Positions 24,825 to 50,796 of a stretch of DNA of 64,000 nt are shown here, piece by piece. The notes under the pieces are model-generated. The model did no database searches and was not told the origin of the DNA. It worked only from the letters and a program-made list of their open reading frames with translations. This stretch comes from a virus (lineage: Duplodnaviria; Caudoviricetes), in IMG/VR virus record IMGVR_UViG_2974632701_000001, positions 1 through 64,000 of that record. One strand, 5' to 3'. Numbering within the stretch: position 1 is the stretch's first letter; the number at the start of each line of letters is the position of its first letter. The translations under genes and the position numbers were made by a program.

Positions 24825-25214
24825 ATGATCTTCGTATTTGGTTCCAACAAATCAGGTGTCCATGGTGCTGGTGCAGCTAAAGTTGCATTTAAGCAACACG
24901 GAGCCAAATGGGGAATCGGTGAGGGCATAGTTGGAAACAGCTATGCTCTTCCCACCAAAGGATTCCACATTGAAAAAATGTCTCTTCTGGAGATTCAGTA
25001 TTCTGTCAATCGCTTCATTGAGACTGCCGAATACTGGAAAGTCAGAGGAGCAGAGTTCCAAGTCACCCGTGTTGGGTGTGGTCTTGGTGGTCACAAAGAT
25101 GCTGACATTGCTCCAATGTTCAGGACTGCCCCTGACAACTGTCTGTTCGATGAGTATTGGAAGCCTTGGCTCGATACTCATGAAGTGAAACGGAGATACT
25201 GGGGAACCTTCTGA
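24825..25214 (+). CDS. Macrodomain-like protein
   Basis: IFVFGSN.SGVHGAGAA and TRVGCGLGG correspond to the two glycine-rich ADP-ribose-binding loops of macro folds. Confidence 0.65.
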   Translation: MIFVFGSNKSGVHGAGAAKVAFKQHGAKWGIGEGIVGNSYALPTKGFHIEKMSLLEIQYSVNRFIETAEYWKVRGAEFQVTRVGCGLGGHKDADIAPMFRTAPDNCLFDEYWKPWLDTHEVKRRYWGTF

Positions 25215-25759
25215 TGACCATTTACTATGCAGGGATAGGAAGCCGTGAGACACCCGAAGACGTATGCAGAAAAATGTTTGCAGCAGGCAGGACAATGGCC
25301 AAGCTCGGATTCATTCTACGATCCGGGGGTGCTGACGGGGCAGATGCTGCTTTTGAATCAGGTGTGGCAAAAGCAGCTTCTGAACTCAATACCCACCTTG
25401 AATCTCTCGCAGAGATATATCTCCCATGGAAGGGGTTCAGGAAAAACCAGTCTCCTCTCTATGGTTCGTGCAAACGAGCTAGACTCCTTGCAAAAGAGTT
25501 TCACCCTAACTGGGCGAATGTCTCATGTGCAGGACGCGATTTTCATGGACGAAATATGTACCAGATTCTCGGACGTGAACTGGACAGACCTTCTTCCTTC
25601 GTCCTGTGTTGGACAAAAGACGGAGCAATTACCGGAGGTACAGGCCAAGCTCTCCGAGTGGCTCAAGAATATGGCATACCCATCCTCAATTTTGCATGTC
25701 ATGATGACCAGTACATCAGTGATTTTATTCTCGGAGCAGCAGAAAGGATGCGAGGATGA
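25214..25759 (+). CDS. DprA/SMF-like SLOG Rossmann-fold protein
   Basis: YAGIGSR, LRSGGADGAD, RNMYQILG, CWT...GGTGQA motifs. Confidence 0.8.
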   Translation: MTIYYAGIGSRETPEDVCRKMFAAGRTMAKLGFILRSGGADGADAAFESGVAKAASELNTHLESLAEIYLPWKGFRKNQSPLYGSCKRARLLAKEFHPNWANVSCAGRDFHGRNMYQILGRELDRPSSFVLCWTKDGAITGGTGQALRVAQEYGIPILNFACHDDQYISDFILGAAERMRG

Positions 25760-39897: not shown

Positions 39898-42800
39898 TTA
39901 CTGACCCCCATTCATCAGGTTGATCCATGGGTTCAATTCAGGTGCATCAAAGAGCATCTCGAACCCTGTGGCATAGTCCAACCGACCTTCAGCAATCACT
40001 ACCAAGATGTTGTCCGTGATTGGGCCACCAACATCGACCACTGAGTTGATAGCCAATGAACGAACCGGATTATCTCGCATCTGCTTTGCAGCAATCTTGA
40101 GAATACGGATCTTAAAGGCCATAAACCAAGTAAGACCATTCGACTCCAAACCGGAGCGAACACGACCCGGAAGCACAGAGAAGTTCACGAACTCTTCGTT
40201 GATCATGGCTGATGCTACCTCAGCACTAAGTCCCTGAGAAATCAGGTGGTCGTAGTAAATAGACTTAGCGATGAAGTCACCATACTGAGTTGCTCGATTG
40301 AGCACCTGATACAGTTTCGTAGACTTTGAAACCAATCCCACCTTCACGATGTCAGTAGCACGCTCTGGCAGACGTTCAGACAGCTTCTCGATGTAATCAC
40401 CAATCCGACCAGACGAGATGTCCACATCGAGATCAGTGATGCCTTCAGACAGGTTTTTGAACTGACCAGCTTCGATCATCGGAGCAATAGACATCTGCTT
40501 GTTCAGATCCTGAAGAACCTGAATACGGTCTTGCAGAATTTGCTTTTGGTTATCGTTCCGAGCAATCTTCATCTTCTGCTGAAGATCAATAATCTTGGTT
40601 CGGTTCTGAATGAACTCCTCAGCTTCAGCCAGCTTTGCACGATACCCTTTGGTGATCTGTTTCACAGGTACACCAGCATTGGCCAACTGCATGACGTTGG
40701 CTTGCACGTTGGCTACAGGAACCACGAGAGACCGAACCACGATGATGTCCTTGGCAGTCGATACAGCCCCTTGCAGAGCCTCTTCACCAGTGGAAAGCCA
40801 CCGCATAGCCTTACGACCCATGATCGCCTCAGTGGACGCCACGATAGCAGCCTGAAGTGGTTTCGGAATACGAGTCTTCCCTGACCACATATCAGTGATC
40901 GAAGGCTCACGATACCCAACGGCAAGGTTTACCATTGACCGTGGAACCATGAATCGACCTTCGAACTTCGATTCAATGTAGTTCTTCGTAGATTGAGGGA
41001 TCAGCTTCCATGATTCCTGATAGATCTTGTCTGAAGAACGCTTCATGTCTTCAAACTCAGCATCAGTCCCATTCGGACGCTTTTCCCACAGCTTATGAAG
41101 CTCATCAACCAGTTGCTTGTTGTACTGGTCAGCAAGGCTTTCTTCCACCTGACGACCAGCCCAAGCACCCAGCATCACTGCAAGGTTCTCTTCACGACCC
41201 AAGTGAAGGTTCTGCATCTCTTCTGAGATCGACCGTTCAAACCCAAGAACAGAACCATCACCAGCAAACACTGGCATCAGTGCTTCCTGTTCATTTTCCA
41301 GAACAGTATTTGGGTTCAGTTGGTTCTGAAGGATACGATCAACCGAAGAATCTCCAGTGATAAGACCAGCCACAGAATTACCCACAGTAAGACCAGTATT
41401 GGTATCCACACCCCGGTAGGTCATGGCTACATTCTGCATCACACCTTGTGAATATCCACCCTGACGACGGACAGTCGAGATGTAGTAAGACCGTGGGAAG
41501 ATGGAATCCGTTTCACCCTCATAAGGGATATCCAGTTTCACATAACCCATCCGCTCACGAGCATCTTTGTTCGTGTCCAAGTCCACAATGATCTGGGTGT
41601 TCTTCCGACCTTCATTCGGAATGTAACCCTTGTATCCATTCAGACGAGCCTGTTCAGTGATACCCGGTTTGGCTTCTTCTGCTTCATTCAGACCCTGAAT
41701 GTATGCCACCATAGAAGTCACACCATTAGGATCAGCCTGCCACAGTTGAACAACCTCTTCACGAGTCTGAGAATCCATTCGATCCAAAGCATAGACTGAC
41801 ACCAGTCGATCAATCTTGCTCACCATGTCCGGAGTACCTTCACCATCAAGGTTCTTCACGATGGCATAAGCATTCCGAACCAAGAGCTTACCAACAGACT
41901 GACCATTCATGAAGTCAGCCAGTTGCTTTGACTTGGCAATCACATCAGCCATAGCAGACCCTGAAAGAGTCTGAGCCAGATCTTGTTCAAGACGCTGGAT
42001 CTCATTGCGACGAGTCGCACTCTCTTCAAGGAACTTCATGGTTTGACGCATGTTGTCGAGGTTCACCAGTGCTGAAAAGTCAGTCTTAGCCAGTGTATCA
42101 AACATAGCTTTCCACTGTTCTTTCGTGGGCGGATTGATGAACTCACGTTCTAGAATACCGGGAAGATCTTCACGGTAAGCCTGACGCATACCCGACACAG
42201 CAGCATTCACTTTGTTAAGCAAATCAACCACTTTCGAGTTTTGCTTATCAGTACCCACGATCTCTGAAACCATTTCCCGAATAGGAACGATAGACAGCAC
42301 AGGCAGACCCATGTGAGTGATACGCTTAGTCGCCTCACCAGTCAGTTCCGTGTTCTTCTTGTCCAGCAGATTGGTTGCCAGAGTGACCGAAGACATCAGG
42401 AAAGGAATGACCTTTCCACGAGACTGAGCCTGAATGTCCTGATCCTTACGCAGCATCCAATCCGAAGTAGCTGACAGTTTGCCAGACACAAAGTTGTCAG
42501 CAGCCGTCAAAGACTCCGTAACACGCTTCAGCAGACGGAACTCTTTCTCCTTGTCATGATCAATGATGATTTTGGCAACAGCATCCAGCACCTCTTGAGG
42601 AGCATTGCTTTCATTCAGAGACCCCATCAGCTTCTTCATAGAGAAAGATGCAGCACGAGTCATGAAGTCCACCAGAGACCCTTCCACCGAAGCCTCAGCC
42701 TCTGGTGCAGGGATCTGTTCCAGAACAGCCCGGAATTTCTTCGAAGTCTGGCTCAGAGCAAACAGCACAGCAGCAGCATCTGACGTACCTTCGTTCTCGA

Positions 42801-45800
42801 TGGAACCAAAGGAATTCAGAACAGCAGAGTACGTCTGACGATCTTCAGGAGTCGAACCAAACATCTCAGGGGTCATGTTCTCAACAATGTGCTGGAACAC
42901 ACGGGTCAGAGCAATCCGAGCCGTAGCATCCAGTTTCATGTTTGACAGCATGATACCGTAGATCGCCTTGAAGGTTGAACGATCCTTGGAGTTTGCCAGC
43001 AAACCACCCTGACGAAGATCATTGATGACCTTCTCAGCATTGTAGATATCCCGACCAGTCTTCTGCTTTGCAGGACTATCCGTCACAAAGCTACGCATGT
43101 ACGCTTTGAGGTTTTCAATCCAGTAGTCAGAATGGTTTTCAAACGGACCTGAAGTCTCATCACCCGGATCATCCGGAGGAGGAGTATTCCCGTTACCACC
43201 ATCATCCACATTCGGTTCATTCAGAACACGAGTGTTGAAGACCACATGATCGAACATCGAAGCAGGCATTCCACCCAGCATCCGACGAAGCAAAGCCATA
43301 ACCTTGCTTCCGAAGTTTGCAATGACAGAGGCTTGCTTTGCAGCAGTCCGAACACGGCTGTTCGTCAGAACATAGGCCATGAATTCGTTCACAGCAGCAG
43401 CCTGATTGACAGGATCGTTACGAGCCATACGACGAGCAATGGCAGCTTGAGCTTCATTCATGGCTTTCCCATCCGATTGGATGTCCATGAATTCTTGCAT
43501 TAGCACTTCCAAACGAGCCACAGCAGGATTGGTCACACCTTCATAGTGATTCAGCACCAGCCCATAGGTTGCAGCATGAACCATCTCATGAAGCACTGAC
43601 TCATTCGTATCCACGCTCATGAACATCACGTTGTTCTTGAAGTCGTAGTTCGAAGGAGCTTTCAGCACGACACCATCATCAGGGAAGTTCTGTTGACGGT
43701 ATTCGTTCAACTGATCCAGCGTACCGAAGATCACCGTTACATCACCCATCAGAGGCTTGAGGATCTCCACAGCCTTCTTCTGATCAGGGGTCAGGTTACG
43801 CATGTTATCCAGCAGAGCTTTGGCCGTGGTAAATTCCACAGGCTTTTTCACATCTTTTGGTTTCGTGTCGTTGTTCATCTCTTTCTCAATCCGATGGTTT
43901 ACTTCAGAAAGAGTCCAAGTCTCCCCATCACGAGAGAAACCAACATCTGAACCGCCCATTTGATCGACAGACACAGCCATCTGCCGGAAGACTTTCTTCC
44001 GAGCACGGTTCTCTTTCAGACGCTTGGCCATTTCTGCTTGCAGATCTTCCGGCCCTTGGAAGAATTTCAAGGATTCCTTTTTGTTATCAGTCATCAGTTC
44101 AGCCCAGACATCATTCAGGATGTCCGAGTCCAGCTTATTAGACATAAACCCTTCGAAGTTCTGCACAGCCATGCCCAGAACATCTCGATCCCAAGACTTC
44201 AACACAGCCTCATTGATCTGAGGAGCATACTGTTTGATCTTGGAAACCGGAACGTCGATACCATCGAACACCGGAAGAACATCATTCGGTGCATTATCAG
44301 CACCAAAGATGAGGTTCATCATCATGGCATCCCCAGTACCAATCACAGCAAATGGAAGAGCACGAACTCCAACGTCATCAGGACGACGCATCCTTGCAGG
44401 AGTGACCAGCTTTTCATCAAAGTTCGAAGACAGACGAAGGTCGGTGAGTTTCTTATCGAAACCACCCACAGCCAAAGTCTGTTCATCAGATACGAAGATC
44501 GCACCCATCTGACTCAGACGATCTTCCAGTTCTTTGAAATACTTACGAGGAATCTCTCCCTTGTTTGGTTCACCTTTCTTGTTCCGCTTGATCGTACCTT
44601 CACGAGCCAGCTTCTCAGCCAGCAGATTGATCTCACGATCAAACAGCTTCTGAAGATACTTGGACTGAATGTTCGTAGACAGCACCAGCATATCATTCAG
44701 TTGTTCAATACGATGTCCCAGAACCTGACGAGTAGCATTCGTCAGAACCTTACCAACCGTAAACTGGATCGACTTCCGGAATGCTTCCACCTGATCATTT
44801 GAGAACACAAAGTTCTTGTCGAAACTGTTAGGCAGTTTCAGACCCAGAGTTTCCATATCCTTCAGAACACCCGGATAGTAGTAGGTATCCCAATCTGCAT
44901 TCTCTGGCATGTCCTGAAGTTTCTCATAGAACTCCAGCAGCATGTCATCAGCCACACCAATAGCCACGCCTTGAACCCCAGAACCATAGTTTACCTTGGT
45001 CATTGGGTTCTTGGCAGTGTTACGGGTCATCCAGAAATCACCCGTAGTGGTGTCCATTTCGAAGTTACCAAAAGCCGAAGCCAGACGACCAGCAGCTTTC
45101 CGTTGCTCTTGTTGCCAAGGCTTCAGGAACTTCAGATCTCCAGTCATCATTTGATCACCCAACTGGGAAACCATCTCATAGAGATCTTTTTCCTTATTGG
45201 TGAAGAACTTGGTTACAGTCATTGCAGTGGTTCCAAGGAAGTAACCCACACGCTTGAAGTTGCCCCAGTCTTCAGGGGTCATCAAACCATGACCAAAGTT
45301 AATCATCATGTTGGCTGCACCATTGGTCAGGCCATCAAGCTCAAAGCTCAAAGCCGTCTCAAACGTGGCATCACCACGTTCCATAGCCAGTTCACGAACT
45401 GCCACAGCCTCGATAGCAGCCAGCACAGCAGGTTCCACTTGACCCACTTCAGCAAGGAAAGCATCAGAGTCAAACTCTCCACCTTCCAGCATAGTTTTTA
45501 CCATATCCACAGCATTGCCATACTTCGTATTGAAGGTCTCAATGGCAGCCGGAAGATGAGTTGCATGGTCCTTCTTCTCTGCTTTGAACAGATCAGCTTG
45601 CTGCACCACACCCAGCCAGAATGCCTGAGTATCGTCAGCATCAGTCGTAGACAGCACTGACCGCTGAGGTGCCACCACATACCGCATCAGCTTGTTGTTC
45701 TGCGGGTTTGGACCCTGCATCTGATGACGACCGACTTGCGTTACCCCAACCGGAAAGAAAACCTCTGAGGCTTGCTGTTCCATCATCCCATTTACGAGAT

Positions 45801-48800
45801 CGGTAACTTCCAGCAGATCACGACGGACAGACGCATTCTTGCCCAGAACTGAACGCTTGAGCACAGGATGAGTCACAGACGCAGGATCACGATAGCCCAG
45901 CATGATTGCAAGGTTATCTTCACCAATGGCTTCCAGCAGCCTTGCACGGCCTTCCTGCAAGCGATGAGGAATGTCCTGCATCCGACGCACAGCCATACGC
46001 TCCAGAACAGACATGATCCCTGTACCACGTCCCTTACGGACTGATACGGTTGGGATCTTGGAACCAATGCTGTAAGACTCACGAGATTCGTTGAAGATCG
46101 TTTCTCGAACAGTGTTCGAAATCCCTTCACCTTTAGCTCCAGCAATCCGTTTCTGATAGTCAGACATCTTCTCAGTGTTGACCAGAATCGTTGCAGCATC
46201 TTGCTGATTCGTTTCATTAGTCAGCTTCACACTGTCGATATCGATGATATCCATCTCAGCAAGAACCGTCAGGATCTCCTTGGCGAAACCATGAGTGATA
46301 CCTTCCAGATCATCGACACTGGATTCTTCATTCTCCTTGATGTGCCACAGACGCTTCAAATCATCAGCAATCGTATCAGATAGCTGACTTGGTGGAATAC
46401 CAAACAGAACCTTGTTCAGACCTTCCTCAGTCAGATCAAGTTTGTTTAGACCCATCTTTTCCAGCGTGTCATCCAGCTTACGGGGATCAGAAGCAGCAGC
46501 AGTTGCGATGAAATCCATCACTGCCAGAACCGCAAGGTTCAGCATGTTTTCATCATACCGTTCAGTTTCCGGATTCATCAGAGCACCAGCTTTGAATTTC
46601 CGGAACTCAACTCGACCATCTTTGATGTGCTGTGCAATGGTCTTGGTAATCTGACCATCTTTCACACGCATCTTCAGACGAGCATTCATACGCTGCACAA
46701 ACTCAGGCAGCACTTCATTCATGATCGTCAGGTACTCACGGTTCATTTTGAAACCAGTACCAAACTTCTGCATGAAGTCTTCCAGACTGGTGACAACAGC
46801 ATCACCAGTACGAGGTGCAAAGCTCTTGTTGAAAAGCTCCGTTACCTTCCGAATGAATCCGGATACGGGGGCGGTGTCTCCTCCCTCAGATTCTCCGGTG
46901 TCTCGCTCTCCGTTGGGTGCTTGAGTTTCTTCGCTGGATACTTCAGCGGCAGTTCCAGTTGTTTCGGTTCGGATGAGATCGCCATAAACTTCCTCCATAA
47001 AGGCAGCAGTGTATCCAAGTTCCCCACTGAATTCCTCAGTAGAGAACGCCATTTCCGTAGCCACTGCGAACAGTTCTGAAGCAATAGTTTCAGGATCTTT
47101 CCGAGTGAAAGCATACTCCAACCGATTGTTGAAATACCCACTCATCTTGCCACGCAGTGCATTCATTTCATTGAAGATCTGTCCACCCTTGTAAAACATC
47201 CGAGCAGATGAATACGGCCTGCCAACAAGATTGGCATGGTTATCAACCAGATGACCAGCTTCATGGATCAGGATCGCTTTACCCAGATCATTCAGAGTAC
47301 CATCCGGATTGAAACCATCTTCCCGAATATGGATAGTCTGATCAGCAAAGAAAGCATGGCCAAGACCAGCAACCCGCATTGGTACAATACGGATTTGCTT
47401 GATGAATTTGTTCATCGTAGGCATCGTTGTCTTGATGAAGTCACGAGCATTACCCAGACGTTCACGGACAGTTTCACGCATCCGAGACTTCTCAGCCTCA
47501 GTCATTTGAGCAACAACATCATCCCATTTGGTGCTTGAAGGGATAGGCTCATCGGAAACTATTTCCTCATTCGTCTCGACTTCAGAAGTCGCTGGCGCTC
47601 CTTCTTCCGTCTCGTCTCTTTCGGAATTACTTTCCTCTTCGACAGCCGTTGGACGTGCATCAATGTTCTGGTTCACGATGGCAATCTGATCACCATTGAA
47701 CACAATCACAATCGCTTCTGTCCCATTAGACAGAATGATCGCATCATGATTTCCGGCTTTGTAATCCATCTCCAGTTGACCACGTTTGGTCAGCCACTGG
47801 TTCTGAGGATCATCAGTCTCAACCAGCAGAGGATTTGTAGCACGGACATTCACAGACATCAGACGGGGATTGGATTTGCCAATAGCGTACTCACGTCCCT
47901 GACCCTTACGAGTGGTCAGGAAGATACCATCCTTGGAGTCAGCAAACTGATCAAACTCAACCCCACCAGTCCCATGATAGAAGACCATCACATTGTCATT
48001 GTCATCAGTGATGAAGCCAGTGTCAGTGCTGATATTCAGGTCTTCTTCTGTAGTCTGGTTCTGCTCCTCGGTTTCTGGCGAAACCTCGTCGTTGGCCGTT
48101 GGGGTTTGTGTCTCTTGGTTTGTTTGTTGGTTCTGCTCGTCAGAAGTTTCTTGGGAAACTTCCTCCTCGATACCCGTTGGTTGGGTATCAGGCTTCGCCA
48201 ATTCAACTTTCTCCATCTTGGGAAATGAACCAAGAATCTCAGGGAATTCCTCACGCAGAGTGTTGAAAGCATCTACCACAGCATTCTGGTCTTCAGCAAC
48301 CTGTTGCGCGAATGCAACACTATTTGCGTTGTCCGGGGAATACCGAACACCTTCACGACGTACACCACGAACAGGACTGTCAAAGTCCTTTAGGCGTCCA
48401 CCACGCTTCCCTTCAGGAGTGATGTATCCATCAGCCAGAGACGCATTCAGAGCCTGCACTTTGTTCACCATGTGCTGGGCAAAGTTCTGCATGTCGGTCA
48501 TGACATCGCTGACAGTCTGCACTCTTCCTTGTTGGTTGATGACGGTCCCTTCAGGGGACTGGATGCCAGTGAAAATCTCTCGGACAAAATCGTTGATTGA
48601 CCGTAGTTTCTTACCACCCTCAGACACCATGCCATCGGCAAAGATCTGACGGGAAACATCGGTGATGGTTTTCTCCTTCCCAGCCGGTCGGCCAGAAGCG
48701 GTAAGATTGACGTTTTCAGTCCGAGAGATTTGAACCTTTGCTTCAACATTCCGGTTCACAATACGAGCCAGCTTTGAAGCAGCTTTCATCAGCTTCGTAT

Positions 48801-50796
48801 CTTCAGGTGAAATTTGTTCACCCGACTGTTCCAAGATCAGATCAGTAGCATCTGGATTCACAGCAGTAGGATTCACTTTCGCTACATTGCGAACAGTGGT
48901 CACATCTGTAGGAGCACCCTCTTTATTCAGATCCAGATTGGTGGCTTTAGACACCACATTCTGAACCATTTTCGAAGAAAGAACCTTTCCAAACTCTTTC
49001 TGAGCCTGCTTAGGCAGACTTGTCACCATGCCTTGCAGCTTCTGGAATTGAGCAGCAGCATAGGCTGTATCAGCCTCAGTTGCTTTGAAGCCTTTGGATC
49101 CCATCTTCGCCACAATACCAGTGACGTTTTCAAAGACGTTGCGTGAACCACCAGCAACATCTGCCAGACCTTCAGATGGGACTTCCACATCAGGAGTTGA
49201 GAAAGCAGTCTGAACACTGTCACGAAGCTGACCTTTGGCAGCTACTTCACGCAGAGATTCAGTAGCATTCACAGTAGCCTGAACCGACTCGACAACTTCT
49301 TTGTCAGTCGGACGATTGGTGTATTCAATGATTTCTTGTCCCACACGTCCTGCCAGTTTACTGGCTTGTTCTGCACCAACAGAAACCACTGAACCAGCAG
49401 CTTCACGAACTGGACGAGTGACATCAGAAAAGACTTCAGCAGCACGAGAAACAGGTGAACCACCCAAGATCTCTTGACGCAGAGGATCATTGTACGTGGT
49501 TTCAGTGAACAGAGTATTGGCTGCATTCACAGCTTCATTGGCAGCCCCACGAGCAGTGTTTGGCGTAGCCATAACACCAGCAACACCCATACCTGCAATG
49601 GCACCCAGAGCAGCTTCTTCACCTACTCCATCAAGAGTACCACGACCAATCTGAGCATACTCTTCCACAGAAAGATTTCGGTTGATGGTTCCAGATGCAC
49701 CTTGACCAGCTTCTTCGATACCTTCACCAGCAATCGACAGAAGACCTTTGGTGACACCAACACCACGGAAACTACCGATAGGCATAGCTTCAAACCGTGA
49801 GGTGATGAAACCAAGAGCAAGAGACGGTGCAATCTGACGAATAGCAGCAGTTTCAGCAGCCATACCAGCAAGCTGAAGTTGAGCATCTTCAGGACTGAAA
49901 CCCTCAGCCAACAGAGCATTGTAGACCGAAGAAGTCTGTGCCAGTCGTTCCATAGGAATCGACATCACATCATTCACAGTCTCAGCGTACACACCTGCAA
50001 CTTCAGTCGTTGCTGCACCAGCAGAGATACCAGCAGCTTGTGCTGCACGTTGAGCCACAGTGTTCCGAATGAGAGCAGTCGATGCACCCTTGGCAATCAA
50101 ACCACCTGCACCAGCCAGAGGCACTGACAGAGCCAGATCACCGATACCTTCAGAGATGATCTGCCCAGTCACATCAGGACTGTTCCATGCACGTTCAGCA
50201 GACTCGACAGCGTTACGTCCTTCACGACGTAGAGCAGCCATAAAAGGATCAGCACCTTCTTGAACTTCACGTTCATAAGTTGCTTGGTTATCCATTGTGT
50301 CCAGTTCACCTTCGATCTGGAACAGACGAGTACGATCTTGAAGCTGAGTCGTCAGGTTATCCTGAAGGAATGATTCAACATTCGCATTGTGTTCACTGAG
50401 TATATCAGCAGTGGCTTGCTCACGAGGAATAGCCCCGTCAGTCATCCAATCAATCATGTACCCTGCACCAATACCAGCAAGGTTTCCAAAGGTACGATAA
50501 GCAGCACCAGCCGCTCCAGTTGCACTGTCACTGATCACTTCACCAGTTGAACGATCTCCACGATCAATACGCTCAACCCGAGCACTCCCTTCACCCATAC
50601 GCATGGCAGCACGATATACAGGATCTCCGTACTTCGCACGGATTTCCACATCATTGAGAGTAGCCATGTCTTGGATGAGTTGATCACTGAAACCAGTGTT
50701 TCGTGTCCGAGCGACAGCAGCGGTATCCTGAAAGTTAGGATCACGAAGACGGGCAGCAATCATTTCAGATGCTAGGAGTTCGTCGCGTTCAGACAT
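39898..50796 (-). CDS. Virion-encapsidated RNA polymerase (N4 gp50-like), polyvalent architecture
   Basis: 3632 aa; motif A ELDGLTNG, motif B RNTAKNPMTKVNYGSG, motif C VFDGID; extra ART-like and HExxH domains. Confidence 0.97.
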   Translation of the reverse strand: MSERDELLASEMIAARLRDPNFQDTAAVARTRNTGFSDQLIQDMATLNDVEIRAKYGDPVYRAAMRMGEGSARVERIDRGDRSTGEVISDSATGAAGAAYRTFGNLAGIGAGYMIDWMTDGAIPREQATADILSEHNANVESFLQDNLTTQLQDRTRLFQIEGELDTMDNQATYEREVQEGADPFMAALRREGRNAVESAERAWNSPDVTGQIISEGIGDLALSVPLAGAGGLIAKGASTALIRNTVAQRAAQAAGISAGAATTEVAGVYAETVNDVMSIPMERLAQTSSVYNALLAEGFSPEDAQLQLAGMAAETAAIRQIAPSLALGFITSRFEAMPIGSFRGVGVTKGLLSIAGEGIEEAGQGASGTINRNLSVEEYAQIGRGTLDGVGEEAALGAIAGMGVAGVMATPNTARGAANEAVNAANTLFTETTYNDPLRQEILGGSPVSRAAEVFSDVTRPVREAAGSVVSVGAEQASKLAGRVGQEIIEYTNRPTDKEVVESVQATVNATESLREVAAKGQLRDSVQTAFSTPDVEVPSEGLADVAGGSRNVFENVTGIVAKMGSKGFKATEADTAYAAAQFQKLQGMVTSLPKQAQKEFGKVLSSKMVQNVVSKATNLDLNKEGAPTDVTTVRNVAKVNPTAVNPDATDLILEQSGEQISPEDTKLMKAASKLARIVNRNVEAKVQISRTENVNLTASGRPAGKEKTITDVSRQIFADGMVSEGGKKLRSINDFVREIFTGIQSPEGTVINQQGRVQTVSDVMTDMQNFAQHMVNKVQALNASLADGYITPEGKRGGRLKDFDSPVRGVRREGVRYSPDNANSVAFAQQVAEDQNAVVDAFNTLREEFPEILGSFPKMEKVELAKPDTQPTGIEEEVSQETSDEQNQQTNQETQTPTANDEVSPETEEQNQTTEEDLNISTDTGFITDDNDNVMVFYHGTGGVEFDQFADSKDGIFLTTRKGQGREYAIGKSNPRLMSVNVRATNPLLVETDDPQNQWLTKRGQLEMDYKAGNHDAIILSNGTEAIVIVFNGDQIAIVNQNIDARPTAVEEESNSERDETEEGAPATSEVETNEEIVSDEPIPSSTKWDDVVAQMTEAEKSRMRETVRERLGNARDFIKTTMPTMNKFIKQIRIVPMRVAGLGHAFFADQTIHIREDGFNPDGTLNDLGKAILIHEAGHLVDNHANLVGRPYSSARMFYKGGQIFNEMNALRGKMSGYFNNRLEYAFTRKDPETIASELFAVATEMAFSTEEFSGELGYTAAFMEEVYGDLIRTETTGTAAEVSSEETQAPNGERDTGESEGGDTAPVSGFIRKVTELFNKSFAPRTGDAVVTSLEDFMQKFGTGFKMNREYLTIMNEVLPEFVQRMNARLKMRVKDGQITKTIAQHIKDGRVEFRKFKAGALMNPETERYDENMLNLAVLAVMDFIATAAASDPRKLDDTLEKMGLNKLDLTEEGLNKVLFGIPPSQLSDTIADDLKRLWHIKENEESSVDDLEGITHGFAKEILTVLAEMDIIDIDSVKLTNETNQQDAATILVNTEKMSDYQKRIAGAKGEGISNTVRETIFNESRESYSIGSKIPTVSVRKGRGTGIMSVLERMAVRRMQDIPHRLQEGRARLLEAIGEDNLAIMLGYRDPASVTHPVLKRSVLGKNASVRRDLLEVTDLVNGMMEQQASEVFFPVGVTQVGRHQMQGPNPQNNKLMRYVVAPQRSVLSTTDADDTQAFWLGVVQQADLFKAEKKDHATHLPAAIETFNTKYGNAVDMVKTMLEGGEFDSDAFLAEVGQVEPAVLAAIEAVAVRELAMERGDATFETALSFELDGLTNGAANMMINFGHGLMTPEDWGNFKRVGYFLGTTAMTVTKFFTNKEKDLYEMVSQLGDQMMTGDLKFLKPWQQEQRKAAGRLASAFGNFEMDTTTGDFWMTRNTAKNPMTKVNYGSGVQGVAIGVADDMLLEFYEKLQDMPENADWDTYYYPGVLKDMETLGLKLPNSFDKNFVFSNDQVEAFRKSIQFTVGKVLTNATRQVLGHRIEQLNDMLVLSTNIQSKYLQKLFDREINLLAEKLAREGTIKRNKKGEPNKGEIPRKYFKELEDRLSQMGAIFVSDEQTLAVGGFDKKLTDLRLSSNFDEKLVTPARMRRPDDVGVRALPFAVIGTGDAMMMNLIFGADNAPNDVLPVFDGIDVPVSKIKQYAPQINEAVLKSWDRDVLGMAVQNFEGFMSNKLDSDILNDVWAELMTDNKKESLKFFQGPEDLQAEMAKRLKENRARKKVFRQMAVSVDQMGGSDVGFSRDGETWTLSEVNHRIEKEMNNDTKPKDVKKPVEFTTAKALLDNMRNLTPDQKKAVEILKPLMGDVTVIFGTLDQLNEYRQQNFPDDGVVLKAPSNYDFKNNVMFMSVDTNESVLHEMVHAATYGLVLNHYEGVTNPAVARLEVLMQEFMDIQSDGKAMNEAQAAIARRMARNDPVNQAAAVNEFMAYVLTNSRVRTAAKQASVIANFGSKVMALLRRMLGGMPASMFDHVVFNTRVLNEPNVDDGGNGNTPPPDDPGDETSGPFENHSDYWIENLKAYMRSFVTDSPAKQKTGRDIYNAEKVINDLRQGGLLANSKDRSTFKAIYGIMLSNMKLDATARIALTRVFQHIVENMTPEMFGSTPEDRQTYSAVLNSFGSIENEGTSDAAAVLFALSQTSKKFRAVLEQIPAPEAEASVEGSLVDFMTRAASFSMKKLMGSLNESNAPQEVLDAVAKIIIDHDKEKEFRLLKRVTESLTAADNFVSGKLSATSDWMLRKDQDIQAQSRGKVIPFLMSSVTLATNLLDKKNTELTGEATKRITHMGLPVLSIVPIREMVSEIVGTDKQNSKVVDLLNKVNAAVSGMRQAYREDLPGILEREFINPPTKEQWKAMFDTLAKTDFSALVNLDNMRQTMKFLEESATRRNEIQRLEQDLAQTLSGSAMADVIAKSKQLADFMNGQSVGKLLVRNAYAIVKNLDGEGTPDMVSKIDRLVSVYALDRMDSQTREEVVQLWQADPNGVTSMVAYIQGLNEAEEAKPGITEQARLNGYKGYIPNEGRKNTQIIVDLDTNKDARERMGYVKLDIPYEGETDSIFPRSYYISTVRRQGGYSQGVMQNVAMTYRGVDTNTGLTVGNSVAGLITGDSSVDRILQNQLNPNTVLENEQEALMPVFAGDGSVLGFERSISEEMQNLHLGREENLAVMLGAWAGRQVEESLADQYNKQLVDELHKLWEKRPNGTDAEFEDMKRSSDKIYQESWKLIPQSTKNYIESKFEGRFMVPRSMVNLAVGYREPSITDMWSGKTRIPKPLQAAIVASTEAIMGRKAMRWLSTGEEALQGAVSTAKDIIVVRSLVVPVANVQANVMQLANAGVPVKQITKGYRAKLAEAEEFIQNRTKIIDLQQKMKIARNDNQKQILQDRIQVLQDLNKQMSIAPMIEAGQFKNLSEGITDLDVDISSGRIGDYIEKLSERLPERATDIVKVGLVSKSTKLYQVLNRATQYGDFIAKSIYYDHLISQGLSAEVASAMINEEFVNFSVLPGRVRSGLESNGLTWFMAFKIRILKIAAKQMRDNPVRSLAINSVVDVGGPITDNILVVIAEGRLDYATGFEMLFDAPELNPWINLMNGGQ

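Follow-up and report, generated by a model that had tools for sequence, protein, structure and literature searches.

ART-PolyVal is reported to be the commonest protein-modifying enzyme domain found in polyvalent proteins (PMC5512222). Its prototype was described by Iyer et al. 2017 (PMC5512222) as an ADP-ribosyltransferase (ART) domain in the virion RNA polymerase (vRNAP) of Roseovarius Plymouth podovirus 1 (RPP1). Those authors grouped the family with protein-modifying relatives and proposed a role like that of Alt of phage T4; the fusion of an ART to a vRNAP, the family and the Alt-like hypothesis were all published in that year. In the classification of Iyer et al. 2022 (PMC9503650) the N4-like family falls under the HY-[EDQ] clade and Alt under the RSE clade, and across these two papers Alt is the only experimentally established case cited of a pre-made, injected host-modifying enzyme. 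Each virion of N4 itself carries four copies of its vRNAP, which is injected (PMC4496689). The literature that we searched gave only computational papers on vRNAP-borne ARTs, with no enzymatic activity or target reported for any ART-PolyVal member, and the accessible text of a mass spectrometry paper on the RPP1 virion does not name vRNAP among the proteins identified.

The vRNAP and its ART domain

The window considered here, a stretch of 64,000 nucleotides of DNA from a virus of the Caudoviricetes, contains an open reading frame on its minus strand whose translation, 3,632 amino acids in length, is a vRNAP. It matches PHROG 2206, 'virion RNA polymerase', over its full length (3194 bits) and is 91.6% identical at the nucleotide level to the vRNAP of Sulfitobacter phage EE36phi1. 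There are no cysteines among its 3,632 residues. Large and polyvalent, it contains a HEMVH peptidase motif that is invariant and, in addition, a HEAGH module. This is the layout set out in PMC5512222, where ART-PolyVal domains are embedded in large multidomain proteins delivered by virions or by conjugation and typically accompany a zincin metallopeptidase. The HEMVH peptidase corresponds to the MPTase that follows the N4 polymerase module as described by Iyer et al. 2017 (PMC5512222). The principal features of the gene are as follows.

39898..50796, minus strand: virion RNA polymerase gene, a polyvalent protein (ORF translation; PHROG 2206; EE36phi1 identity)
43576..43590, minus strand: HEMVH, residues 2403-2407, the conserved C-terminal metallopeptidase (H2403, E2404 and H2407 invariant in 10 vRNAPs)
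43954..45072, minus strand: landmarks of the polymerase core, N4_RNAP_helical at residues 1909-1968 and vRNAP_dom at 2144-2281 (Pfam, 31.6 and 160 bits)
46927..47520, minus strand: second variable module, a zincin-like region with HEAGH at residues 1178-1182 (47251-47265), recognised by its motif
47521..47664, minus strand: downstream acidic linker, residues 1045-1092 (33% D+E)
47665..48006, minus strand: ART-PolyVal ADP-ribosyltransferase domain, residues 931-1044 (PF18760, model, fold matches, dN/dS)
48007..48195, minus strand: upstream acidic low-complexity linker, residues 868-930 (27% D+E, 1.6% K+R)

The site of the ART is fixed: the domain follows the N-terminal injection domain and precedes the polymerase core. 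A preliminary description of this DNA had likewise placed an ART-like domain between acidic linkers and N-terminal to the core. The coordinates that it gave, 47675-48010, correspond to vRNAP residues about 930-1041, and the peptide that it quoted is found in the translation of the vRNAP gene. Its identification of the domain is supported because the profile match, the predicted fold and the conserved active-site residues all agree. With the whole protein as query, Pfam places PF18760 (ART-PolyVal) at residues 931-1044 with 34.8 bits (E 3.4e-8), in excess of the curated gathering cut-off of 31.2 bits; a six-frame search of the genome with the same profile returns 47665-48006 on the minus strand with 42.4 bits (E 6.6e-12). 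NCBIfam and PADLOC gave no match to the domain.

Structure prediction by AlphaFold, which the preliminary description had called for, yields an ART fold (AF2 model, pLDDT 92.6, pTM 0.85). The top Foldseek matches of this model are diphtheria toxin (E 1e-3), the tankyrases and exotoxin A. A wide structure search, independent of Foldseek and covering 48,161 representative chains, likewise returned top-ranked chains that are nearly all of the ART superfamily (PARPs, ParT, MbcT, Arr, exotoxin A, cholix and AcrIF11); alignment with PARP2 gave Z 8.1 and an rmsd of 3.7 over 107/126 residues (VIA-align), and that with tankyrase Z 7.9. Searches of all PDB chains by sequence, using either the single domain or an 11-sequence profile, produced no credible match, nor is any solved ART-PolyVal structure recognisable by sequence among those chains. 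Residues 931-1044 of the vRNAP form a domain with the ART fold, of the kind found in polyvalent proteins.

These structural relationships bear on the likely substrate. Given that the H-Y-[EDQ] clade includes modifiers of nucleic acids and of small molecules, an active ART might act upon nucleic acid, whether phage DNA as it enters, DNA of the host, or the 5' or 3' termini of transcripts from the attached polymerase, after the fashion of DarT or of end-modifying enzymes of the PARP/Tpt1 type. The domain is covalently joined to an RNA polymerase that would be bound to DNA where the DNA enters, and Arr, an ART of about this size that modifies a small molecule, matches the model at Z 6.4. The best structural matches, however, are protein-modifying PARPs and toxins, in keeping with the grouping of the family by Iyer et al. 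2017 (PMC5512222), and we identified no nucleic-acid-binding surface or motif in a domain whose flanks are strongly acidic. We regard a nucleic-acid target as quite unlikely and a protein target as the better reading.

Conservation of the active site was counted over 74 aligned copies of the ART family, which include polyvalent proteins other than vRNAPs.

47743..47745, minus strand: codon of Asp1018, which begins strand 5 and is predicted to be the catalytic acid (Asp in 74/74 copies)
47920..47922, minus strand: codon of Phe959, the aromatic position of G-I-F-L-T in strand 2 (F in 55, Y in 10 and W in 7 of 74)
47974..47976, minus strand: codon of His941, in the Y-H-G-T motif of strand 1 (His in 73/74 copies)

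His941, which the preliminary description had numbered correctly, is also invariant in an alignment of 10 vRNAPs and lies inside model strand 15-20. Phe959, at a position that is aromatic in 72/74 family copies, lies inside model strand 34-37 and is followed by Tyr970, in a helix; Asp1018 stands directly before model strand 95-99. Other conserved positions are F951 (74/74) and Q1037 (64/74). The assignment of a glutamate as the catalytic residue has to be revised, the invariant acid being Asp1018, whereas E1027 is Glu in only 41/74 copies. Iyer et al. 2017 define the active site of PF18760 by a His on strand 1, a Tyr on strand 2 and an Asp on strand 5; the present domain has this arrangement, with Phe959 in place of the tyrosine. 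Phenylalanine occupies this position here and in most vRNAP copies, in contrast to the Tyr of the family description, and this substitution counts against an active ART. Judged from the conserved residues and the model, the domain is nevertheless probably catalytically competent and NAD+-dependent.

Catalysis need not mean transfer. The ART-superfamily NADases RES and MbcT are among the structural matches (Z 5.7-6.5), and the domain could hydrolyse or bind NAD+ or ADP-ribose without transferring it, whether as an NADase, as a sponge for or sensor of NAD-derived immune signals of the host, or as an auto-modifying regulator of the vRNAP. Yet Iyer et al. 2022 (PMC9503650) count the N4-like family as macromolecule modifiers and remark that NADase-type ARTs are under-represented in viruses, and the invariance of the His and the Asp points to catalysis. 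The very few vRNAP molecules delivered per infection, as established for N4 (PMC4496689), weigh on both sides: they are in keeping with such a role in general but are too few for a sponge and, if the N4 numbers apply, they limit any stoichiometric role. We consider hydrolysis or binding without transfer very unlikely, and retain transfer to a macromolecule as the preferred reading.

Selection, gain, loss and replacement of the domain

Relative to EE36phi1, the ART domain has a dN/dS of 0.074, the lowest of nine vRNAP segments, compared with 0.108 for the polymerase core and 0.97 for the downstream linker, which is essentially unconstrained. The upstream linker (residues 868-930) is variable across the 10-vRNAP alignment. 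Among the segments of the vRNAP, it is the ART domain that is under the strongest purifying selection.

A search for related loci with the single domain as query returned EE36phi1 alone, and the distribution of the domain was followed by recovering ART copies among relatives through whole-vRNAP loci. It is present, as a single copy each, in 38/116 vRNAP cluster representatives, about a third, and in all 38 it lies either 340-400 or 590-620 amino acids ahead of the core. On the polymerase core tree its state changes at least 17 times, as against a shuffled mean of 28.9. The vRNAPs P0009 and P0010 lack exactly the ART module while being about 90% identical elsewhere, and P0004 has a different HExxH (zincin) module in its place. 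Both edges of the cassette carry a copy of a short repeat.

47634..47652, strand not assigned: 19-nt imperfect direct repeat, copy 1, encoding P-T-A-V-E-E, at the downstream cassette edge (repeat search, family D1)
48084..48102, strand not assigned: 19-nt imperfect direct repeat, copy 2, encoding P-T-A-N-D-E, at the upstream cassette edge (79% identical to copy 1)

The spacing of these copies, 450 nt, equals the roughly 150 residues absent from P0009 and P0010, in which the deletion junction reads PTA/VEEE. The ART is an optional in-frame cargo cassette between two acidic linkers, and the existence of close relatives without it indicates that it is dispensable for basic infection.

The position of the domain in the linker region, and the fact that it is as free of cysteine as the remainder of this ejection protein, might be taken to mean that it is a catalytically dead spacer or plug that serves in packing the vRNAP or threading it through the tail. 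Close relatives delete it cleanly, however, and it therefore has no essential structural role. Furthermore, the active-site His and Asp are invariant in distant copies, including those of polyvalent proteins that are not vRNAPs, and no other part of the vRNAP is under purifying selection as strong. On active-site conservation and dN/dS we reject this reading, to which we attach a negligible probability, in favour of a conserved enzyme carried as cargo.

The neighbouring HEAGH module is variable in its own right. It gave no match in Pfam, NCBIfam or PADLOC, and an alignment of 10 vRNAPs that bear the ART shows no conservation in this region. Two classes of spacing between the ART and the core can be told apart in such vRNAPs, according to whether about 250 amino acids are present there; as many of them do without this module of roughly 250 residues, dependence of the ART on the adjacent zincin was rejected.

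Proposed role and the gene pair at 24825-25759

We think it likely that the ART of the vRNAP is a compact (about 115 amino acids) transferase of the H-Y-[EDQ] clade, carried as cargo, delivered by the virion and modifying a host macromolecule early in infection. Each virion would carry a few copies of an N4-type vRNAP and eject them into the cell before its DNA, and for this reason the ART would reach the host pre-made, on the vRNAP. By analogy with the vRNAP of N4, delivery at time zero may reasonably be inferred. Once inside, the domain would modify some macromolecule of the host, most probably a protein, by ADP-ribosylation as infection begins, acting as an accessory effector of host manipulation or counter-defence and not as part of the transcription machinery. 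A host-modifying enzyme borne on the first protein to enter the cell would act before any phage transcription.

A more specific proposal, which we put forward tentatively and hold to be unlikely, is that the ART serves as an exchangeable counter-defence enzyme, injected and already in position on the vRNAP at the site of DNA entry, which disables a specific host immune protein or marks the entering nucleic acid before any phage expression. Were this true, the repeated gain, loss and replacement of the domain in near-identical roseophages would follow the defence repertoires of individual host strains, and the vRNAP linker would be a natural slot for effectors, from the contents of which host range could be predicted. 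A culturable system of the Sulfitobacter/EE36phi1 type, with natural isogenic variants that have or lack the cassette, would be convenient for finding the target.

The preliminary description had also suggested that the ART, as writer, could form a timed system with a gene pair at 24825-25759, read there as macro/SLOG, as eraser. The two genes are A1S_2505-like and DprA-like (SLOG). This link is unsupported. The A1S_2505-like gene, whose product has 129 amino acids, belongs to the A1S_2505 family (NCBIfam assigns A1S_2505_Nterm), and a homologue is present in 6/6 complete related genomes with an ART-bearing vRNAP but also in 4/9 with an ART-less one, a comparison confounded by relatedness since the ART-positive genomes are the closer relatives. 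The pair belongs to the early/middle region, about 22 kb from the ART, and is encoded on the other strand; there is neither the genetic linkage nor the co-inheritance that might be looked for in a writer and its eraser. Automatic names of the macro/ADPr type attached to the nearest Atlas clusters of the 129-residue protein are suggestive only. Its AF2 model is of low confidence (pLDDT 64), and although macrodomains top the Foldseek list and DarG is among the best matches, these are non-significant (best E 0.045) and mixed with cutinases; Pfam gives no macro match. A macro fold is weakly indicated, and we neither accept nor reject it. The neighbouring protein of 181 residues is PHROG 768, 'DprA-like', with a weak SLOG match in Pfam, where its SLOG and DprA matches are all sub-threshold. 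Finally, Iyer et al. 2022 (PMC9503650) argue that the main task of phage Macro/SLOG pairs is to destroy ADPr-derived signals of the host, not to reverse phage ARTs. A writer-eraser relationship is extremely improbable.

Comparison with known systems

PARPs, tankyrase and diphtheria toxin, all of the H-Y-E type, share with the vRNAP domain the order of His, aromatic residue, helix Tyr and acid (strands 1, 2, - and 5). Sequence identity is 10-17%, Asp replaces their Glu, and at about 115 amino acids the vRNAP domain is much smaller and is without their helical regulatory or acceptor loops.

Closer in size is AcrIF11, an anti-CRISPR ART that provides a precedent for a phage ART as a counter-defence enzyme. 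Both are small, phage-encoded ARTs (PDB 6kyf; Z 5.5, 99 residues aligned, Foldseek rank 38). AcrIF11, however, is a stand-alone early protein that is not delivered by the virion and has no detectable sequence relationship to the vRNAP domain.

Alt of T4 is related to the vRNAP ART at the superfamily level only. Whereas Alt is a member of the R-S-E clade and a head protein in its own right, the vRNAP domain is of the H-Y-[D] clade and is an in-frame fusion; the Arg, Ser-x-Ser and Glu motifs of Alt/VIP2-type ARTs are absent from it, and the conserved elements are H-G-T, F/Y-x-T and D. Alt is present at about 40 copies per head, far above the copy number of the vRNAP. What the two share is a proposed logic, in which the ART is made beforehand, goes in together with the DNA and acts on proteins of the host at time zero (PMC5512222).

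The closest relationship is to the 'N4-ART' of RPP1 (PF18760; Tox-ART-HYD2-related), with which the present domain shares its Pfam family and its H / aromatic / D layout. The vRNAP of RPP1 (P0034) has a homologous ART domain at 1014-1153, and the copy in EE36phi1 is 96% identical to the one described here. The zincin module after the ART is without a Pfam match in this vRNAP and is PF06167 in RPP1. Both domains reside in the N4-type vRNAP of a roseobacter phage, beside metallopeptidase modules, and there is no difference of kind between them.

An ADP-ribosyltransferase domain in the virion RNA polymerase

The domain at issue lies within one long open reading frame:

39898-50796, minus strand: virion RNA polymerase (vRNAP) open reading frame of 3,632 codons, enclosing the finding
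47665-48006, minus strand: ADP-ribosyltransferase (ART) domain, from a six-frame genome search (42.4 bits, E 6.6e-12)

The product matches phrog_2206 of PHROGs (virion RNA polymerase) from end to end (3194 bits), and the Pfam landmarks of the N4 polymerase fall at residues 1909-1968 and 2144-2281. The source virus record is 74,675 bp long; the closest named relative is Sulfitobacter phage EE36phi1, with 91.6% nucleotide identity across the finding. The preliminary description placed an ART-like domain at 47675-48010, N-terminal to the polymerase core and flanked by acidic linkers, and all of this is borne out. The coordinates correspond to residues ~930-1041, the peptide quoted is present in the translation exactly as given, and the numbering of His941 is right. 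Pfam ART-PolyVal (PF18760) matches residues 931-1044, ahead of both landmarks, at 34.8 bits against a curated cut-off of 31.2, and a six-frame search of 14 control genomes for ART-PolyVal gave no matches. The linkers on both sides are acidic and of low complexity (D+E 27% and 33%). Given the profile matches, the clean controls and the acidic flanks, the domain is real and not a chance motif.

The expectation of an ART fold also held when the structure was predicted. Eleven aligned copies of the domain (21-96% identity), taken from homologous vRNAP loci in IMG/VR, yielded a confident AlphaFold2 model with a pLDDT of 92.6 and a pTM of 0.85. Diphtheria toxin, tankyrase 1/2 and exotoxin A headed the Foldseek matches in the PDB (E ~1e-3, TM ~0.5), and VIA-align superposed the model on PARP2 with a Z of 8.1 (rmsd 3.7 Å, 107/126 residues). 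When 48,161 representative chains were scanned independently of Foldseek, members of the ART superfamily likewise dominated, among them PARP1-4/10/13/15, tankyrases, plant RCD1/SRO1, ParT, MbcT, Arr, exotoxin A, cholix, NatT, RES toxins, AcrIF11 and diphtheria-like toxins. A lone Z near 8 is not decisive for the predicted fold; the uniform match list, taken with the profile match, is.

At Foldseek rank 39 stands chain B of PDB 9k3a, a solved ejection protein from the pre-ejectosome of cyanopodophage A4, a region of which aligns with the model (Z 6.7, 107 residues, 15% identity). This chain gave no match to the ART profile at the sequence level, and ADP-ribosylation is absent from the paper describing the structure. 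This packaged protein may contain an unrecognised ART-like domain.

The active site was examined in 74 ART copies from vRNAPs and other polyvalent proteins, collected by exhaustive phmmer search. Y940-H941-G942-T943 is conserved (His in 73/74), as are T961 and N988-P989; F951 is kept in 74/74, Q1037 in 64/74, and position 959 is aromatic (F 55, Y 10, W 7). In the model, H941 lies on strand 1, F959 on strand 2 and Y970 in the helix that follows. The His and strand-2 aromatic of the catalytic pattern first proposed stand, but its acid is not Glu: Asp1018, where the fifth conserved strand of the model begins, is present in 74/74 copies, whereas nearby E1027 is conserved in just 41/74. That a domain with these residues acts as an NADase or a binder seems quite improbable.

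A cargo slot in the acidic linkers

Three further features surround the domain:

47521-47664, minus strand: acidic linker downstream of ART (dN/dS 0.97 vs EE36phi1)
46927-47520, minus strand: module after ART with an HExxH motif (HEAGH at 47251-47265)
47634-47652 and 48084-48102: copies of a 19-nt imperfect direct repeat, 450 nt apart

ART is an optional part of vRNAP: ~38-40 of 116 cluster representatives have it, never in more than one copy and at a constant relative site that lies 340-400 or 590-620 residues ahead of the core, the two spacings arising because a second module between them is present or absent. Here, this module has no match in Pfam or NCBIfam and no specific PHROG match; the same region in other vRNAPs holds PF06167 (M90-like) or PF10263 (SprT-like) peptidases, and ART-bearing vRNAPs occur both with and without it. 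On a FastTree phylogeny of the core region, ART presence or absence takes at least 17 state changes; label shuffling gave 28.9 on average and never fewer than 24. Two relatives (P0009 and P0010), ~90% identical elsewhere, are without exactly residues ~902-1051, the ART cassette. Their deletion junction, PTA|VEEE, falls in the acidic linkers and corresponds to the direct repeat. At the ART site, P0004, a third relative that shows 95% identity downstream, instead has a different HExxH (zincin) module. Because ART is missing or replaced there in close relatives, the linker site behaves as a swappable cargo slot.

Nei-Gojobori dN/dS values against EE36phi1, across nine vRNAP segments, are lowest for ART (0.074), with the polymerase core at 0.108; that ART is a dead spacer is barely credible. 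The linker after it evolves neutrally, adjoining segments lying at 0.07-0.14, which is consistent with a pure spacer.

Proposed action and the gene pair at 24825-25759

N4 carries four vRNAP copies per virion, above the portal, which are injected before the DNA, and genome injection requires the vRNAP N-terminal domain (PMC4496689). The 3,632-residue protein studied here contains no cysteine, ART and zincin cassettes included, and N4 gp50 and DEV gp71 are likewise reported to have none (PMC11445570). Since N4 vRNAP is packaged and injected, and cysteine is absent here as in the N4 protein, the best-supported reading is that a pre-made ART would ride into the cytoplasm on vRNAP and then ADP-ribosylate a host macromolecule ahead of all phage gene expression; we infer its activity, delivery and target alike. 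A nucleic acid as the substrate is unlikely. The patchy distribution of ART argues for an accessory role in host manipulation or counter-defence, rather than a core transcription function.

The preliminary description further proposed that ART forms a writer-eraser system with a macro/SLOG pair:

24825-25214, plus strand: 129-aa A1S_2505-family ORF (NCBIfam NF049995, 135 bits; phrog_2072, function unknown)
25214-25759, plus strand: 181-aa DprA-like/SLOG-like ORF (PHROG 768 'DprA-like'; SLOG match sub-threshold)

The two genes overlap by one base. In the interpretation of Iyer et al. 2022 (PMC9503650), the Macro/SLOG pairs of phages destroy host signals derived from ADPr. The 129-aa product has no macro match in Pfam; its AlphaFold2 model is poor (pLDDT 64), its top Foldseek matches include macrodomains and DarG mixed with cutinases (E >=0.045), and the ADPr-type names of its Atlas neighbours are automatic, so 'macro-like' is possible but unproven. 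Among records at least 90% complete, an A1S_2505 homologue occurs in 6/6 ART-positive, which are the closer relatives, and in 4/9 ART-negative ones; there is no specific linkage to ART. The pairing is therefore unsupported, and ART as a writer matched to these genes is very improbable. Many N4-like roseophages retain a member of the A1S_2505 family (12/30 records), and two TGA codons interrupt the homologue in G003, a complete related genome.

Relation to known systems

What the present analysis adds is the cassette behaviour of ART in very close relatives, with a deletion junction bounded by a repeat, its replacement by a zincin in one of them, the strength of purifying selection upon it and its lack of linkage to the A1S_2505/DprA-like pair. 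No experimental study of a vRNAP-borne ART was found in the searched literature. The fusion itself is already known: for Roseovarius Plymouth podovirus 1 (RPP1), Iyer et al. 2017 (PMC5512222) described an N4-like vRNAP with a fused NAD+-dependent ART, which they made the prototype of a polyvalent-protein ART family and placed in the Tox-ART-HYD2 clade; Iyer et al. 2022 (PMC9503650) name this family 'N4-like' or N4-ART. The RPP1 (P0034) and EE36phi1 (P0008) proteins both carry the domain, and the arrangement of H941, aromatic 959 and D1018 is the His/Tyr/Asp layout given for the family by Iyer et al. 2017 (PMC5512222).
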